DNA of 64,000 nt from Escherichia phage PHB12: the sequence record MK524178.1; one strand, given 5' to 3'. The position numbers and the translations under genes were made by a program. Below, piece after piece: positions 10,176 to 62,001 of this stretch (position 1 is the stretch's first letter; the number at the start of each line of letters is the position of its first letter). The notes under the pieces were generated by a model. It had not been told where the DNA came from. It was given only the letters and a program-made list of their open reading frames with translations, and did no database searches.

Positions 10176-10204
10176 ATAGTATCATCGTCGGTAGAGTTTG
10201 TACA
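10176..10204 (-). promoter_or_regulatory. early promoter-like (TGTACA / TACTAT)
   Basis: Upstream of modA-like start; a second GTTTAC/TATGAT element at about 10306-10334. Confidence 0.4.
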
Positions 10205-10494
10205 CTAAAAATTCAACATTTTCAAATGAATGTTTTTGTTAGGTATTCGCGTTCTTGAAGTTCAGATTGACATGTCATGATAGACCTCCATTTAAAGATA
10301 AGCCTATCATAACACGAGAGGAGGGAATGTAAACTACTTTTTAAGCTTTCCTACTAAAGGTCCATCAGGACCAGGTTGTTCTAACATGAATAAGGATGCT
10401 TTAAAAAGCAATGTCAACCCTTTCACCATTCGATACCATGTCTCAAAGTCTTTTTCCTTGATTTCTAGTAAGAATTTCTCTTTAAATTTCTCTT

Positions 10495-10683
10495 TCATTT
10501 CCAAGGACTCCATGGTGGAGGGTCGTCATAATAAGAGGCAAGGTCTTTCAAGGCTTCAACAGGTAAACTAAAGCCATGTCGTTGTATAATACTATCTAGT
10601 TCATCAACAAGTTCACTACGATGCACTTTAGGAGCCTCAACTTCAGGCTCATCAAACATACTCATCAAGTCCATATTATTCAC
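10495..10683 (-). CDS. hypothetical acidic protein
   Basis: 62-aa ORF. Confidence 0.35.
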   Translation of the reverse strand: MNNMDLMSMFDEPEVEAPKVHRSELVDELDSIIQRHGFSLPVEALKDLASYYDDPPPWSPWK

Positions 10684-11140
10684 CGAGATAAAAACTAGCA
10701 GGTTCAGAGAATGTTTCTAGTGCTACACCTTTTGTCTTAAAAAATTTCCAAATAGCTCGTTGCAAATGGATTAAATCTGCTAATGATGTAATAAAGTATT
10801 TTTTGGCAAAATACTTATGGTCTCGCTTTTCAAACAAGTCTAAACGCTTTTCAGGATTCACATAAACGGCATTTTCCGTAGATTCATAACCTAAGTCCTT
10901 TATGCCTTCTTCAAGACTAAATGGAGAATTTTTAGAACGAGTAATAGCTCCAACTCGCTCTACACGAATTTTGTAACCTTTAGGAATCTGCAATTTGCAG
11001 AATTCTTCTACGATATATTGCGGATTATTTAGACTTTTGTTAATGAGAATAGCTATTTCTAGTGGAGTCTTATCTTCTACTGGTATATGTTTAAATGACT
11101 TGGCTTCAAGCAAATACATTTTAAATAACATAGCATCCAT
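10676..11140 (-). CDS. hypothetical protein
   Basis: 154-aa ORF. Confidence 0.4.
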   Translation of the reverse strand: MDAMLFKMYLLEAKSFKHIPVEDKTPLEIAILINKSLNNPQYIVEEFCKLQIPKGYKIRVERVGAITRSKNSPFSLEEGIKDLGYESTENAVYVNPEKRLDLFEKRDHKYFAKKYFITSLADLIHLQRAIWKFFKTKGVALETFSEPASFYLGE

Positions 11141-11315
11141 TATAATTTCCTCGATGGTTCACCCATATAAAGTTTTACAATACGTTCGCCTTCATCTTCG
11201 ACGAGCTTCTCTTCATGTTTCTGGAGTTCTTTGACCATTTTCTCTTCAAAAACATCTAACCAATCTTCTGGTCCGACTCCATCATTCCAGCTTTTAAACC
11301 ATTTTACTATTCTGT

Positions 11316-58575: not shown

Positions 58576-58789
58576 AAGGAATTTCCTCATCGGTGGCAAG
58601 GTCATATTCGACCAATTGGATAGGCTCGTTAATACCATATCCACGTACAGTGATATCGGTTGTCGGATATTTTCCAGTAATATCACCCATTCTAAATGCT
58701 TCAGTGAATGATTGCTCGCCTGAGCAACTAAACCAGGCGGCAAAACATTTTAAAACATCTTCAGACCCTTCTATAATCAATTTAGCCAT
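58565..58789 (-). CDS. hypothetical protein
   Basis: 74-aa ORF. Confidence 0.35.
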   Translation of the reverse strand: MAKLIIEGSEDVLKCFAAWFSCSGEQSFTEAFRMGDITGKYPTTDITVRGYGINEPIQLVEYDLATDEEIPYVD

Positions 58790-59151
58790 TATAGACTCTC
58801 AGTAAAGGTACGAGCGATAACGTCGCGTTGCTGTTCTGGAGTCAGAGAGTTAAAGCGAACTGCATAACCGGATACACGGATGGTCAGCTGTGGATATTTT
58901 TCCGGATGCTTAACTGCATCTTCCAGAGTTTCACGACGCAGAACGTTAACGTTCAGATGTTGACCACCTTCAATTTTAACTTTAGGTTGATGTTCAATTT
59001 CAATTTCACGGGCATTCAAACCGTAGAAAATTTCCGGGTCTACAATAGCGTCTTCTTTAAAAGTCTTAGAGACGATAATCCGGGCTTGAGTACCGTCTTC
59101 AAAATAAATAGTGCCTTTATGTGCACCTTCAAGAATTTGATATGCTTTCAT
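58789..59151 (-). CDS. autonomous glycyl radical cofactor (GrcA/YfiD-like)
   Basis: 120 aa; C-terminal [56 protein letters not shown] is the glycyl-radical domain of PFL/GrcA (radical Gly in RVSGYAV). Confidence 0.8.
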
Positions 59152-59157
59152 ATAACC

Positions 59158-59466
59158 TCAATTAGAAAATAAATTTATCCAAGATTTTTCTTTAATCAAA
59201 AATGGGTCGGAATTAAACGCCATTAAACTTTGAGTGATTAATCCCTTAAATGGCCCATCAATAAATTCCATTTTGAAATGTGGAATACTAGTCATCAACC
59301 GTGCATTAGGAGCAGTACAAAGAACGTGCTGCCCTGCGAACGGACCTTTAGTCAAACGATATCGTTTAGGTTTAAAATGGTAAATCTCGTAATTTTCTAC
59401 AAGAGCCCTTTTATTGCATACTGGGCTGTTATAACAATACTCAAAAACTTCAATAGTGGTCATCAT
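59158..59466 (-). CDS. hypothetical protein
   Basis: Start at MMTTIEVFEY. Confidence 0.4.
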   Translation of the reverse strand: MMTTIEVFEYCYNSPVCNKRALVENYEIYHFKPKRYRLTKGPFAGQHVLCTAPNARLMTSIPHFKMEFIDGPFKGLITQSLMAFNSDPFLIKEKSWINLFSN

Positions 59467-60002
59467 TGCATTCCAATCACAAAAAATTGAGGACGAGCAA
59501 TACCGCCGATGCAATATTTGCTTTTGCAGCAGTGCTGTACTGATTTAATATGGACATTGTAAATCTTATCCATATCAGGAGCTTTAATAGGCTCGTCAAT
59601 TATATACAGAATACGAGAAAGCGTTAATCCACGGAATTTAGAACCTTCATTGCCAATAAAACTACGGACAGAATCAGTAAATAAACGGAATCGAATATCA
59701 TCGCTAGAATAACGAGAAAATTCTTTTTTAATGTTGCCAACAGAAATTTTAGCATAAGCTGAAGTATTAGAAAGAACAATAACTGTTCCACCGTCGTACA
59801 GCCAATTAACAGCAAAATTAGTTACTGCGGTCGATTTACCTGATTGTCTGCCGCCGTCTAAACGAAGTGTACAGTACTGCTTGAGTACGTCTTCAAATGG
59901 CGGGATATAACCATTCTTACAAATTTCTTCTACTCTAGCATCAGAATGGTGTGTAAAAGCATTCATCAGGGATAGATAAGGTCCGGTTAAAAATGTTCTC
60001 AT
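59463..60002 (-). CDS. small P-loop NTPase
   Basis: 179 aa; Walker A GGRQSGKST, Walker B ILYIIDEP. Confidence 0.45.
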   Translation of the reverse strand: MRTFLTGPYLSLMNAFTHHSDARVEEICKNGYIPPFEDVLKQYCTLRLDGGRQSGKSTAVTNFAVNWLYDGGTVIVLSNTSAYAKISVGNIKKEFSRYSSDDIRFRLFTDSVRSFIGNEGSKFRGLTLSRILYIIDEPIKAPDMDKIYNVHIKSVQHCCKSKYCIGGIARPQFFVIGMQ

Positions 60003-60243
60003 TTAGTTTCTCTTTTAGGTTGGGCTGTTCCGTGGCACATGAATTGTCCATTTCTGTATTTACCCATTACCGCACTTGGGCTCGACCTTATTACAGGTTG
60101 GCGGGAATCCCTCATAGAATCATGAGGTCCAGGTTGTTCCCATGTTATTTGAATGTAAATATTTTTGCCTTAATACTTATACCAGTGTGGCTTCATTAAA
60201 ATTTTTTCATCGAGTCATTTTACCTCTCCAAGTAATTATGAAT

Positions 60244-60273
60244 ATACTATCACAATTTTAGGAGAAAGTAAAC
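60244..60273 (-). promoter_or_regulatory. early promoter-like element heading a ~250-nt untranslated leader
   Basis: GTTTACtttctcctaaaattgtgATAGTAT; next sizeable ORF starts at 60002. Confidence 0.45.
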
Positions 60274-60275
60274 TG

Positions 60276-60578
60276 TTATTTACCTTTAATTACTTTAGCT
60301 GCTTCGATAGCCGCTTGCTGAAGGTCGTCCATAGACATACCGAATTTAGAAGCAAAGTTATCAATTTTCTTTTCGACAGCATTCAAAGGCTTGGCCTGTT
60401 TACCTTCATTAGCGCCAGGAAGAGCGAGAATACGCTCTTTGTCAATATAAAGGCTTACAAGTTTCTTACGGTCTTTATCGGATAAATCATGAAATGAATG
60501 GGCCTTTTTATTTATAGCGGCTTCTAATTTACCTGCACTCACTCGCGCTTCAGTAATAAATTCTTGATATGTTTTCAT
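60276..60578 (-). CDS. ipII: internal protein II (capsid-targeted)
   Basis: 100 aa; capsid targeting sequence MKTYQEFITEA. Confidence 0.7.
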   Translation of the reverse strand: MKTYQEFITEARVSAGKLEAAINKKAHSFHDLSDKDRKKLVSLYIDKERILALPGANEGKQAKPLNAVEKKIDNFASKFGMSMDDLQQAAIEAAKVIKGK

Positions 60579-60619
60579 ATGTTTCCTTTAAATGTAAATA
60601 GGCCTAAGTATCGGCCTTA

Positions 60620-61198
60620 TTAATTACCACGGGCTGCATTAGCAACGGCATAAGCGTACTGAACATTAGCGTCTTTAAACGTACCTTTAGAGGTGTCTAT
60701 TTCTGCCTTAAAGCCGCCTTTAGCCATAACATCGGCAAATTCTTTACGGAAGGCCATTGCATCAAGACCCTTCCATGATGATTTATGCTTGGCAAATTCA
60801 AGACCTGCGAAGTTGACAGCTTTAGCCAATTTATTATCAATGACCCATTTACCGGCTTTAGGCACAAACTTCGGGCCTTTTTGTTTAGAGAACAGTTTTA
60901 AATTCCAGCGACGAAGATCACTGTCGGCTTTAACAAAAGCTGCGTCTAAGTTACTAGCAACAACATCTTCAATATGAGCAAATTTAAGTCCGTCAACTTC
61001 AATATTTAGATCGTTACGCCAGCGAAGTCCTTCCCAAGCGAAGGCTTTAAAATCAGAAGCTTTTGTGGCTAGATATCGTTCAAGTGGAGCAGTTTTAGGG
61101 TCGAAGCCGTTTCCACCACGATAAGTCCACTCGTCCTTATTAATGCCTTGAGCTTTTCCTGCAAAGGCCTCGGCGATAAATTCTTTATATGTTTTCAT
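60620..61198 (-). CDS. ipIII: internal protein III (capsid-targeted)
   Basis: 192 aa; capsid targeting sequence MKTYKEFIAEA. Confidence 0.7.
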   Translation of the reverse strand: MKTYKEFIAEAFAGKAQGINKDEWTYRGGNGFDPKTAPLERYLATKASDFKAFAWEGLRWRNDLNIEVDGLKFAHIEDVVASNLDAAFVKADSDLRRWNLKLFSKQKGPKFVPKAGKWVIDNKLAKAVNFAGLEFAKHKSSWKGLDAMAFRKEFADVMAKGGFKAEIDTSKGTFKDANVQYAYAVANAARGN

Positions 61199-61228
61199 TT
61201 TTGTTTCCTTGTTTGTTTTGATAGAGTA

Positions 61229-61258
61229 ATTATACCATATTAATACTTAAGCGTAAAC
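61229..61258 (-). promoter_or_regulatory. early promoter for ipIII (GTTTAC / TATAAT)
   Basis: GTTTACgcttaagtattaatatggTATAAT. Confidence 0.5.
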
Positions 61259-61261
61259 TGT

Positions 61262-61522
61262 TTAAGCTTTACCGCCGGAAATAATTCCGAAGTTGTTAAA
61301 ATCGTATCCAATATCGTCGACATCTACTTTAGGGCTTGCTACAACATAAGCAATTTCACTACGTTTTGCATAGGTGTTGATTTCTTTACCATCGCCACCT
61401 AAGAAAGAATACCCATTACGTTTTAATGAGCCAAAGTCTTCCGCATCACCAATGAAAGCTTTAACTTTAAATTTGGGGTCTTTGGCATCTGCTTCAATGA
61501 TAAATTCTTGATACATTTTCAT
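61262..61522 (-). CDS. internal-protein-like ORF with capsid targeting sequence
   Basis: 86 aa; MKMYQEFIIEA then unrelated cargo. Confidence 0.55.
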   Translation of the reverse strand: MKMYQEFIIEADAKDPKFKVKAFIGDAEDFGSLKRNGYSFLGGDGKEINTYAKRSEIAYVVASPKVDVDDIGYDFNNFGIISGGKA

Positions 61523-61530
61523 TTTTTTCC

Positions 61531-61944
61531 TTAGTAAATTGATTTACCATAGTATTTGTACCAAGTCGGACGTTGAGCAATTTTTTCATCTAAGCGTGCT
61601 TGACTTATCGCAATGGACGCTTCGGACGGGACGTAATTATTACGAAATTCTACAGGAATGTCGGAAATATCCTGGACTGTCGTGTCCTTGATTTTGAAAC
61701 CACGTTTCAAACATTCGGTGATTAGCTCGATTTGACGTAAACGTAAAAATTCGAGTTTGTCGTAAAAGAATGTTACGTGACCTGTGCCTAAGATAAATGT
61801 TGGAGAGATTTTAAAATCTTTTACACGTTTACCGTTTTGAACATGTTTACGGACTGCACCAAATACGCGTGGTAATTCACGATACTCAGCCATAAGATGT
61901 TGGTCGGTCAGTTCGGAAACGAGTGTTAAATTGATACGAGTCAT
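61531..61944 (-). CDS. denV: endonuclease V (pyrimidine dimer DNA glycosylase)
   Basis: Start at [34 protein letters not shown]; near-identical to T4 DenV over its length. Confidence 0.9.
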
Positions 61945-61971
61945 AATTTCCTCCAAGTAGTTGATGAATGT

Positions 61972-62001
61972 ATAGTATCAAAGTCCTTGGAGGAAGTAAA
62001 C
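61972..62001 (-). promoter_or_regulatory. early promoter for denV nested in 8-bp inverted repeat
   Basis: GTTTAC at 61996-62001; arms CCTCCAAG / CTTGGAGG at 61950-61957 and 61986-61993, downstream arm holds the RBS GGAGG. Confidence 0.5.

Follow-up and report, generated by a model that had tools for sequence, protein, structure and literature searches.

Phage T4 encodes two structured RNAs of tRNA size, rnaC and rnaD (the species 1 and 2 RNAs), beside co-oriented tRNA genes, and structured elements near start codons are also known as riboswitch aptamers and as protein-binding leaders, such as the operators of T4 genes 32 and 43. The put RNAs of phage HK022 are cis-acting, polymerase-modifying antiterminators with two adjacent stem-loop domains, about 70–80 nucleotides (nt), located just downstream of promoters. 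The repeats of the type III antitoxin ToxI consist of a hairpin followed by UUAAGUGC, and the PeSL cassettes of T4-type phages carry a stem-loop and then an early promoter, flanking novel open reading frames (ORFs). Here we describe an element in a 64,000-nt stretch of Escherichia phage PHB12 (sequence record MK524178.1), hereafter the window. The element, 120 nt on the minus strand (60022–60141) upstream of the vs.8 gene, belongs, on sequence comparison, to a widespread family of structured phage RNAs that is absent from Rfam and apparently undescribed.

The element lies in a gap uncovered by genes (60003–60275), flanked by an ipII-like ORF (60276–60578, minus strand) and by the P-loop ORF of vs.8 (59463–60002, minus strand), boundaries that match the ORF listing and that an earlier note on this DNA had drawn in the same way. 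That note treated the stretch as a single entity, possibly a structured leader or a small RNA. The gap is instead composed of two unrelated halves, a promoter with a relic of denV on the 5′ side and the conserved structured RNA on the 3′ side; the denV origin of the promoter-proximal half was not part of the earlier reading. The parts of the RNA are the following.

60022–60141, minus strand: conserved structured RNA, whole; the T4 counterpart is 64,819–64,938
60061–60141, minus strand: RNA core, as matched by the covariance model
60137–60141 with 60103–60107, minus strand: helix P1, GGGAA/UUCCC
60122–60127 with 60110–60115, minus strand: helix P2
60100–60102 with 60062–60064, minus strand: helix P3, GCC/GGU
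60095–60098 with 60085–60088, minus strand: helix P3a, 4 base pairs (bp), with the loop GUAAUA at 60089–60094
60065–60084, minus strand: near-invariant strand CGAGCCCAAGUGCGGUAAUG, with a possible mini-hairpin P3b
60022–60060, minus strand: 3′ extension specific to T4-like phages, AAUACAGAAAUGGACAAUUC plus AUGUGCCACGGAACAGCCC, with GGA at 60047–60049 and a conserved block at 60022–60040

The fold is made up of a hairpin domain, in which P1 encloses P2, directly abutting the short helix P3; P3 closes a small three-way junction formed by P3a with its loop GURRNA, a tentative P3b and the invariant strand GGUAAUG. P1 is a helix of 4–7 bp whose 3′ strand abuts P3 and whose sequence differs among groups: GGGAA/UUCCC, GGGAG/CUCCC, AAAGG/CCUUU, AAAGC/GCUUU, AAAGA/UCUUU, GAGUG/CACUC, GAAUG/CAUUC, GUGUAU/AUACAC, GGAAC/GUUCC, GGGG/CCCC and GGAG/CUCC are all observed. 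It encloses a loop of 13–15 nt in the N4-like phages and hairpin P2 elsewhere. P2 is the palindrome to which the earlier note had drawn attention; it is genuine and reads CCTCAT-GATTCT-ATGAGG on the minus strand at 60110–60127, about 4 nt away from where it had been placed. P3 (3–4 bp) occurs as GCC/GGU, ACC/GGU, ACU/AGU, GGC/GCC, GCC/GGC, GAC/GUU, CUGG/CCAG and CCC(U)/(A)GGG, and P3a as ACCU/AGGU, with GCCU/AGGC in two lineages and GCCA/UGGU in Pseudomonas phage KIL1. The 20-nt strand CGAGC-NNN-AGYGCGGUAAUG is nearly invariant except at the NNN and Y positions; together with the loop positions it is invariant in 41–47 distinct sequences. RNAalifold independently predicts P1, P3a and P3b, the last of which remains a tentative, predicted mini-hairpin.

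The fold as drawn is what was left after several other pairings had been tried and rejected. A "D-stem" GCCC/GGGU in the core is contradicted by the CUGG/CCAG variants, which preserve P3 and not that pairing; CCGC/GCGG is missing in type-B and N4-like copies; and the helix UACA(U)/(A)UGUG in the 3′ block is broken by a common U-to-C change. The 3′ block itself, G.GCCA.GGAA..GCCC, is present in 45 distinct T4-like versions, which were selected by matching a pattern for part of that block. Its hairpin GCCA/UGGC, weakened in the window to GCCA/CAGC, shows no compensatory changes within the T4-likes and was retained as a sequence block only. The idea that GGA in hairpin loops marks CsrA sites leaves the core unexplained. 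Likewise, CGCGGUAAU in the element matches positions 526–534 of 16S rRNA, yet mimicry of the 530 loop (helix 18) was discarded, with an alignment score of 18 that is at the level of chance (shuffled means 18.7–18.9).

The helices are supported by compensatory changes. In a model-fitted alignment of 47 distinct natural sequences, 92.7% of the cells are paired and 9 of the 11 pairs have changed on both sides; in 500 shuffles the percentage paired, the number of two-sided pairs or cells and the covariation score are never reached, the number of further pair types is reached four times, and slid registers give only 29–60% pairing. When only P3 and P3a are considered (41 sequences), pairing amounts to 94.4%, with two-sided changes in four of seven pairs. 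Here again no shuffle out of 500 attains the percentage paired, the two-sided cells, the further pair types or the covariation score, five attain the number of two-sided pairs, and slid registers fall to 19–56%. The inner pairs of P3 are CG in 32–34 sequences, GC in 5–10 and UA in 5. The outer pair of P3a changes from AU to GC in two lineages and its closing pair from UA to AU in KIL1; one P1 pair is CG in 10, GC in 9 and AU in one sequence of an unambiguous, gap-free MAFFT alignment of 21 type-B sequences; and P2 passes from CCUCAU/AUGAGG to CCUUAU/AUAAGG, besides a paired co-deletion. The G-U pairs are located on the gene-sense strand.

A covariance model, R1, was built from the trimmed alignment. 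It matches the copy at 60061–60141 with 70.1 bits (E about 1e-16) and nothing else in the 64-kb window, and it also recovers, at 54–55 bits, versions from Gelderland- and Tegunavirus that were outside the seed. Phage instances score 47–70 bits, with the exception of two degenerate second copies in tandem arrangements (24–32 bits). To judge from these comparisons, the signal lies far beyond chance and the fold is well supported.

Conservation in related phages, which the earlier note had named as a check on its proposal, is found decisively for the 3′ 120 nt of the gap, which are conserved well beyond the flanking genes. A blastn search of the gap against 50,697 phage records matched 999 of them, with only the 3′ 100–150 nt widely shared, and a search with the 51-nt core retrieved at least 1,050 GenBank phage records. 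None of the 60 among the matches listed has an RNA annotated under the core; the features there are "none", "hypothetical protein", "record has no annotation" or, in T4, "vs.8". Scanning IMG/VR and metagenomes with patterns and adding the GenBank matches yielded more than 40 distinct versions in five contexts: the T4-like phages (Tequatro-, Mosig-, Dhaka-, Jiaoda-, Gelderland- and Tegunavirus and Karam-like phages), Vequintavirus, the N4-like Schitoviridae (for example Klebsiella phage Pylas), Pseudomonas phage KIL1 (Flaumdravirus) and one unplaced metagenomic contig. Over a 43-nt string, CCAACCUGUAAUAAGGUCGAGCC-N-AAGUGCGGUAAUGGG, identity with the Vequintavirus phage navn is 95%; the blastn match there is confined to query positions 171–213, and the flanks did not align.

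Two sequences from this survey deserve a separate remark. The Vequintavirus form occurs at 95% identity in GenBank entry MG065635, "Campylobacter phage C12" (137.6 kb), a host label that looks doubtful for a genome of such a type. A metagenomic contig (L183, 1–39) begins inside a divergent copy, with the loop GUAACA and GGUAACGCG, and continues with the promoter-like site TTGACA...TACTTAAAT; it may represent a sixth lineage.

The element is confined to phages as far as the searches reach: blastn found no match to it in 5,426 E. coli genomes. A host origin was rejected, as the 66 16-mer matches in 185,579 species genomes are at the level of chance, none extends into the core and, scored with R1 at the bacterial loci preselected for a shared 16-mer, all stay at or below 27 bits. 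The Rfam search suggested by the earlier note found no described family at the element: with the 4,227 covariance models of Rfam 15 and E ≤ 10, no match overlaps it in the interval 59000–61500, and six loci, taken from T4, Vequintavirus, N4-like phages and KIL1, gave nothing at the element at E ≤ 1. The sole match within the gap is a Tetrahymena snoRNA model with E 0.94 at 60217–60297, over the promoter and the end of ipII. Identity with a tRNA or tRNA-like molecule was rejected as well, since neither ARAGORN nor Rfam gives a tRNA cloverleaf at the element: ARAGORN called none anywhere in the window, and in 11 loci it called the neighbouring tRNAs but nothing at the element, and the Rfam tRNA model matches the flanking tRNAs only. 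In the literature searched, the core sequence is not printed, no RNA is described at the vs.8 locus and nothing relevant appears on vs.8 or on non-coding RNA of T4; the T4 dual-omics paper mentions RNAC and RNAD only, and neither vs.8 nor denV. A catalogue drawn from the same viral collection, IMG/VR, lists 8,495 RNA candidates supported by covariation, including tRNA-like ones and ones upstream of genes (Fremin, Bhatt and Kyrpides 2023, PMC10690425). The text of that paper does not mention T4-like phages, and the element may be among its unnamed candidates.

The genomic surroundings of the element differ between the lineages. In all T4-like groups it is located 15–45 nt upstream of an ORF start and on the same strand, the ORF being vs.8 or, in Jiaodavirus, also an ip gene. 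In the N4-like phages it is found inside tRNA arrays, on the tRNA strand, either in the middle or at the end of the array and not at its start: in one locus (L192) it begins 18 nt after a tRNA, and in another (L172) it stands between tRNA-Thr and tRNA-Gly. In KIL1 it separates tRNA-Met from tRNA-Arg. In Vequintavirus the element, upstream of a tRNA cluster, is bracketed by two strong sigma-70 promoters: its own, which agrees with the consensus at 11 of 12 positions, and a second one that stands between the element and the next ORF with the tRNA cluster. The context thus says leader in PHB12 and stable RNA gene in the other phage families. With the 3′ part of the gap conserved, its stems covarying and its junction nucleotides invariant, the description as a structured leader or small RNA is borne out for that part.

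The N4-like tRNA regions are built of cassettes, each framed by inverted repeats about 20 nt long, CACAACAGGTAAKRGCATTG ... CAGTGCYMTTWYCGTTGTG (L046, about 10200–11200; also L044, L064, L075 and L162). Some of these cassettes have no tRNA and show weak, sub-threshold Rfam matches to permuted tmRNA (L064, 1737–1844; L162, 2452–2657).

Among the described RNAs, rnaC and rnaD resemble the element in context: the likeness holds for the N4-like, Flaumdravirus and Vequintavirus elements, whereas the T4-like element sits upstream of vs.8 and not in the tRNA cluster. The element is far wider in its spread across phage families, and kinship was rejected, as R1 has no match in T4 69500–74500, which contains both rnaC and rnaD.

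The position in the T4-likes could be explained by a cis-regulatory leader of vs.8-vs.7-vs.6, in which the junction would bind a metabolite, as in a riboswitch, or a phage or host protein, and the 3′ extension would serve as an expression platform controlling vs.8 translation or read-through. Covarying helices around an invariant junction are the classic aptamer signature, and the element has them, at 15–45 nt before an ORF start on the same strand throughout the T4-like groups; the resemblance to riboswitch aptamers is one of architecture only. The N4-like copies even carry a downstream octamer, AGGUUAGU, whose complementarity to the 5′ strands of P3 and of P3a would permit an alternative fold; this alternative pairing, however, does not covary with P3, the ACC and ACU variants retaining GGUUAGU. 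The 5′ untranslated placement before functionally related genes that characterizes riboswitches is not seen across the genomes of the T4-likes, the N4-likes, KIL1 and Vequintavirus: in three lineages outside the T4-likes the element stands in tRNA arrays or a promoter intervenes before the next ORF, and the genes that follow it have no relation to one another (vs.8, an ip gene, phrog_3330, tRNAs). No Rfam riboswitch match was found. As for an expression platform, the gap holds no terminator-like site, and neither a conserved terminator nor a conserved anti-Shine-Dalgarno pairing was seen. We regard a cis-regulatory leader as the main rival reading, though a rather unlikely one.

The likeness of the element to ToxI-type decoys is likewise architectural only. 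The Vequintavirus RNA contains three similar modules, including two shorter copies of "hairpin-CUUGAWAGUGC-helix" (L058, about 516–690; also L033, L035, L038 and L005), which suggests that the modules are a repeated binding unit. The T4-like 3′ extension resembles "module 3" of this RNA, the T4-like 3′ block being similar to the downstream Vequintavirus module, and hairpins of other sequence occupy the place of the extension in the Vequintaviruses. The "hairpin + ..A(A/U)AGUGC" module occurs three times in Vequintavirus and twice in the T4-likes, and the idea of a phage decoy is shared with pseudo-ToxI; but the modules are separated, of unequal length and only loosely alike, and not tandem identical repeats of 34–36 nt. 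Rfam gave no family match at the element, no check being aimed at ToxI, and the E. coli genomes searched hold no blastn match to the element. ToxI-like tandem repeats are accordingly not what is seen here.

Duplications of the whole element are found in two T4-like groups. In Jiaodavirus, Klebsiella phage PKO111 has two copies (L013, 128–180 and 652–702), one before an ipII-like gene and one before vs.8, and Karam-like phages have two copies in tandem (L062, 5095–5258; L065, 9013–9177), the second with a degenerate invariant strand and 24–32 bits. Such duplicates could be expected of an element that acts at the level of DNA, as a junction of recombination or of mobile cassettes such as the PeSL cassettes or as a homing-endonuclease target, or of functionless DNA that was recently exchanged. 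The element does lie at breakpoints of gene order, near shuffled ip genes, denV and insertions of endonuclease genes, and rearrangement has clearly left its debris in the 5′ half of the gap. Recent transfer, however, would bring the flanks along, and it would not account for the compensatory changes that the stems show in five lineages around an invariant core; a transcript is indicated by the G-U pattern, specific to one strand, and by the orientation, always that of the neighbouring genes and tRNAs. An explanation by DNA-level or neutral processes is thus very improbable.

If the transcript is what matters, it might act in cis on transcription or on RNA fate, by a put-like or Nus-factor antitermination through untranslated tRNA arrays and early operons, or as a signal for processing or stabilization by host RNases. 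The likeness to HK022 put RNA is architectural only, by description, and would concern the two adjacent stem-loop domains of about 70–80 nt downstream of promoters. Untranslated arrays, in which the element resides, are liable to termination by Rho; the 5′ flanks of the element are rich in A and U, and a promoter is present upstream in the window and in Vequintavirus. Nevertheless, no boxA or nut-site similarity was seen by eye and there is no Rfam match; the element's position in arrays is not always promoter-proximal, the N4-like copies being mid-array or at the array end; and in T4 the element follows denV with no nearby promoter. Action of this kind appears improbable.

We favour an autonomous folded module that would bind a conserved partner and might be released as a stable RNA, a reading whose chances we judge about evenly balanced. 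It is preferred to a vs.8-specific cis-regulator on account of the tRNA-array and own-promoter contexts in the other lineages. In PHB12, the RNA would be made within an early transcript running into vs.8-vs.7-vs.6, begun about 95 nt upstream, at the promoter of the denV relic, or reached by read-through from the ip genes. The folded module would present its invariant junction to the partner, most likely a protein and possibly a small ligand, and action through pairing with the vs.8 ribosome-binding site would be improbable. Because the same module sits among tRNA genes in three other lineages, a stable domain acting in trans is favoured: it might be excised by the host enzymes that process tRNA precursors and could act as a decoy or scaffold during infection.

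Several points weigh against this reading or against the fold on which it depends. The T4-like element directly precedes an ORF start (vs.8 or the Jiaodavirus ip gene), an arrangement resembling that of a cis-regulator, and the T4-like-specific 3′ extension comes as close as about 20 nt to the start codon. In most lineages the element is not followed by a terminator, and a free small RNA would therefore need processing. The partner molecule is entirely hypothetical. As for the fold, P1 was found by a helix search next to P3, and the 100% pairing in the trimmed alignment (A2) is partly by construction; the folding energy of single sequences is not better than that of shuffles, with z = −1.4 for 286 nt and +0.2 for 171 nt. 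The support for P3b is one-sided only (GU to GC), and this hairpin is broken in two loci (L017 and L019). P3 is displaced by 1 nt in the type-B sequences, and its outermost pair does not form in roughly one sequence out of three.

The conservation could also be thought to reflect a small protein. The earlier note had stated that the minus strand contains no ORF longer than a few codons, which is not correct: there are ATG ORFs of 38 codons (59999–60115) and 36 codons (59941–60051), and the plus strand has ORFs of 68, 39 and 28 codons. Several GenBank annotators call such ORFs genes, and phages HX01 and NHEP29 have small ORFs annotated in the stretch. T4 vs.8 itself is annotated as a protein of 219 residues (NC_000866, 64253–64912), which starts at an ATG inside P2 and reads through the element. 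The profile of the vs.8 family, with 177 positions, begins at MRTFL, and the other genera start 40 codons later, at the equivalent of the T4 ATG 64790–64792. Because the family profile and all other genera begin at this later site, the start of T4 vs.8 is probably mis-assigned, and the extra 120 nt would be the RNA element.

The candidates for such a protein are the 38-codon ORF, a short upstream ORF that could start at the conserved 3′ block AUGYGCCANGGAAYGGCCC (ATGTGCC, ATG at 60038–60040) and be coupled to vs.8 by ATGA, and a plus-strand ORF. Across the core, types A and B share one open frame of the ORF that runs through the element, and T4 annotation takes this ORF as part of vs.8; its frame relative to vs.8, however, varies, being in frame in T4 and out of frame in the window, where the ORF stops at the vs.8 ATG, and the ORF is interrupted in Vequintavirus, closed by TGA in navn. 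For the short upstream ORF, GGA precedes the ATG by 6–7 nt in 38 of 45 versions and several versions end in an ATGA overlap with vs.8. Against it, ACG or TTG replaces the ATG in 7 of the 45, the changes are mostly non-synonymous (C/R, H/Q, M/T), and after the 3′ block every outcome of the frame is met with: ATGA overlap, early stop, in-frame fusion and out-of-frame overlap. The core lacks variation of the synonymous type over 40 nt between phage families, and its sole variable triplet gives G, R or W on the opposite strand. Neither the vs.8 extension nor the upstream ORF thus shows a conserved start, frame and stop with a synonymous bias, the vs.8 profile starts only at MRTFL, and covarying stems are not expected from coding constraint. 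From this variation, the gap ORFs are unlikely to be coding, and a small protein as the source of the conservation is a highly improbable explanation.

The promoter-proximal half of the gap has a different history and comprises the following features.

60244–60273, minus strand: T4 early-type promoter-like element GTTTAC...TGATAGTAT, read from the sequence
60142–60230, minus strand: putative internally deleted denV relic, from collinear matches to T4
60223–60229, minus strand: Shine-Dalgarno sequence of the relic, GGAGAGG
60207–60218, minus strand: start of the relic, ATG ACT CGA TGA

The promoter-like element claimed by the earlier note is present: GTTTAC at 60268–60273 is followed, after an 18-nt spacer, by TGA-TAGTAT with the −10 box at 60244–60249, and the predicted transcription start is near 60237. 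A generic sigma-70 scan of the gap did not detect this early-type promoter, because the −35 boxes of T4 early promoters differ from TTGACA. The segment is 90% identical to the ipII-denV spacer of T4 with its early promoter, and promoter plus leader (60226–60273) are 78% identical to those of the functional denV at 61951–62001 on the minus strand. Further on, TAAAATGACTCG is a 12/12 match to the ribosome site and first codons of T4 denV, the first 8 nt of the relic start, ATGACTCG, agreeing with the denV start and diverging afterwards. GATGAAAAAATT is a 12/12 match near the 3′ end of T4 denV, and the degenerate 3′ end spans GATGAAAAAATT to CACTGGTATAAGTATTAAGG. Between the TAAAATGACTCG and GATGAAAAAATT matches, 346 nt of denV are absent; the A/T-rich spacer ATTTACATTCAAATAACAT closes the segment. 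The Tequatrovirus blastn matches to the gap come in three pieces straddling denV. The collinear T4 pieces and the 78% duplicate at the functional gene indicate that about 60142–60273 is a duplicated denV promoter followed by an internally deleted denV; the upstream 110 nt of the gap would thus be rearrangement debris outside the RNA fold. The duplication would record the rearrangement that placed denV upstream of the ip genes in the PHB12 lineage, and the relic promoter may still be firing. As regards the PeSL cassettes, the early-type promoter at 60244–60273 belongs to the denV relic, and the RNA lies downstream of the promoter here and is promoterless in T4. Overall, the gap, the promoter-like boxes and the palindrome of the earlier note stand, while its statement on ORFs and its view of the stretch as one entity do not.

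The window belongs to a T4-type phage of the RB69/HX01 group (Mosigvirus), and phages NHEP29, AV117 and HX01 are 96–97% identical to the region. On the minus strand the gene order is denV (61531–61956), three internal-protein genes of which ipII is the last, then the gap, the vs.8 homologue, vs.7 and vs.6; the synteny from vs.8 to vs.6 is common to the window, T4 and RB14. Downstream of the RNA the features are as follows.

60003–60021, minus strand: spacer with a weak Shine-Dalgarno sequence of vs.8 (AAGAG, 60010–60014), from the sequence
59463–60002, minus strand: vs.8 homologue, 179 residues, P-loop-like, the first gene 3′ of the gap
59158–59514, minus strand: vs.7, the ORF after vs.8
58789–59151, minus strand: vs.6, GrcA-like, with a Pfam Gly_radical match (E = 2e-18)

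The vs.8 product matches phrog_1488 with E = 1.6e-77, residues 3–179 aligning to profile positions 2–177 of 177. The vs.6 product, two genes past the RNA element, is a stand-alone glycyl-radical domain, a "spare part" for glycyl-radical enzymes. On the other side of the gap, a terminator-like hairpin, AGGCCGATACTTAGGCCT, is located 3′ of ipIII (60600–60617, minus strand) and is followed by ATTTACATTTAAA. The ATTTACATTCAAATAA string after this hairpin reappears just 5′ of the RNA element (60142–60160) and also in two other phage loci (L009 and L011); it looks like a reused intergenic module.

The element was hidden in an apparently mis-extended ORF of T4, one of the best-studied genomes in biology. 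Its practical yield is a correction of the probable start of T4 vs.8, a flag on spurious small ORFs in many annotations and a covariance model ready for phage annotation. The 40-nt junction is near-constant across Straboviridae, Vequintavirinae, Schitoviridae and a Pseudomonas myovirus while the surrounding stems drift and compensate, which implies a specific conserved binding partner, and its occurrence beside tRNA genes hints at a connection with RNA processing, translation or anti-defence. Such a partner would be of wide interest to the study of phages and their hosts. A more ambitious proposal, doubtful when taken as a whole, is that of a new class of trans-acting, tRNA-sized, three-way-junction phage RNA, spread among no fewer than four unrelated groups of virulent phages that infect enterobacteria and Pseudomonas, that would travel with phage tRNA sets and would have been captured into the vs.8 leader of the T4-likes. 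Its junction would neutralize or redirect a conserved host factor, for example a defence nuclease targeting tRNA or other RNA, or an RNA-processing enzyme.

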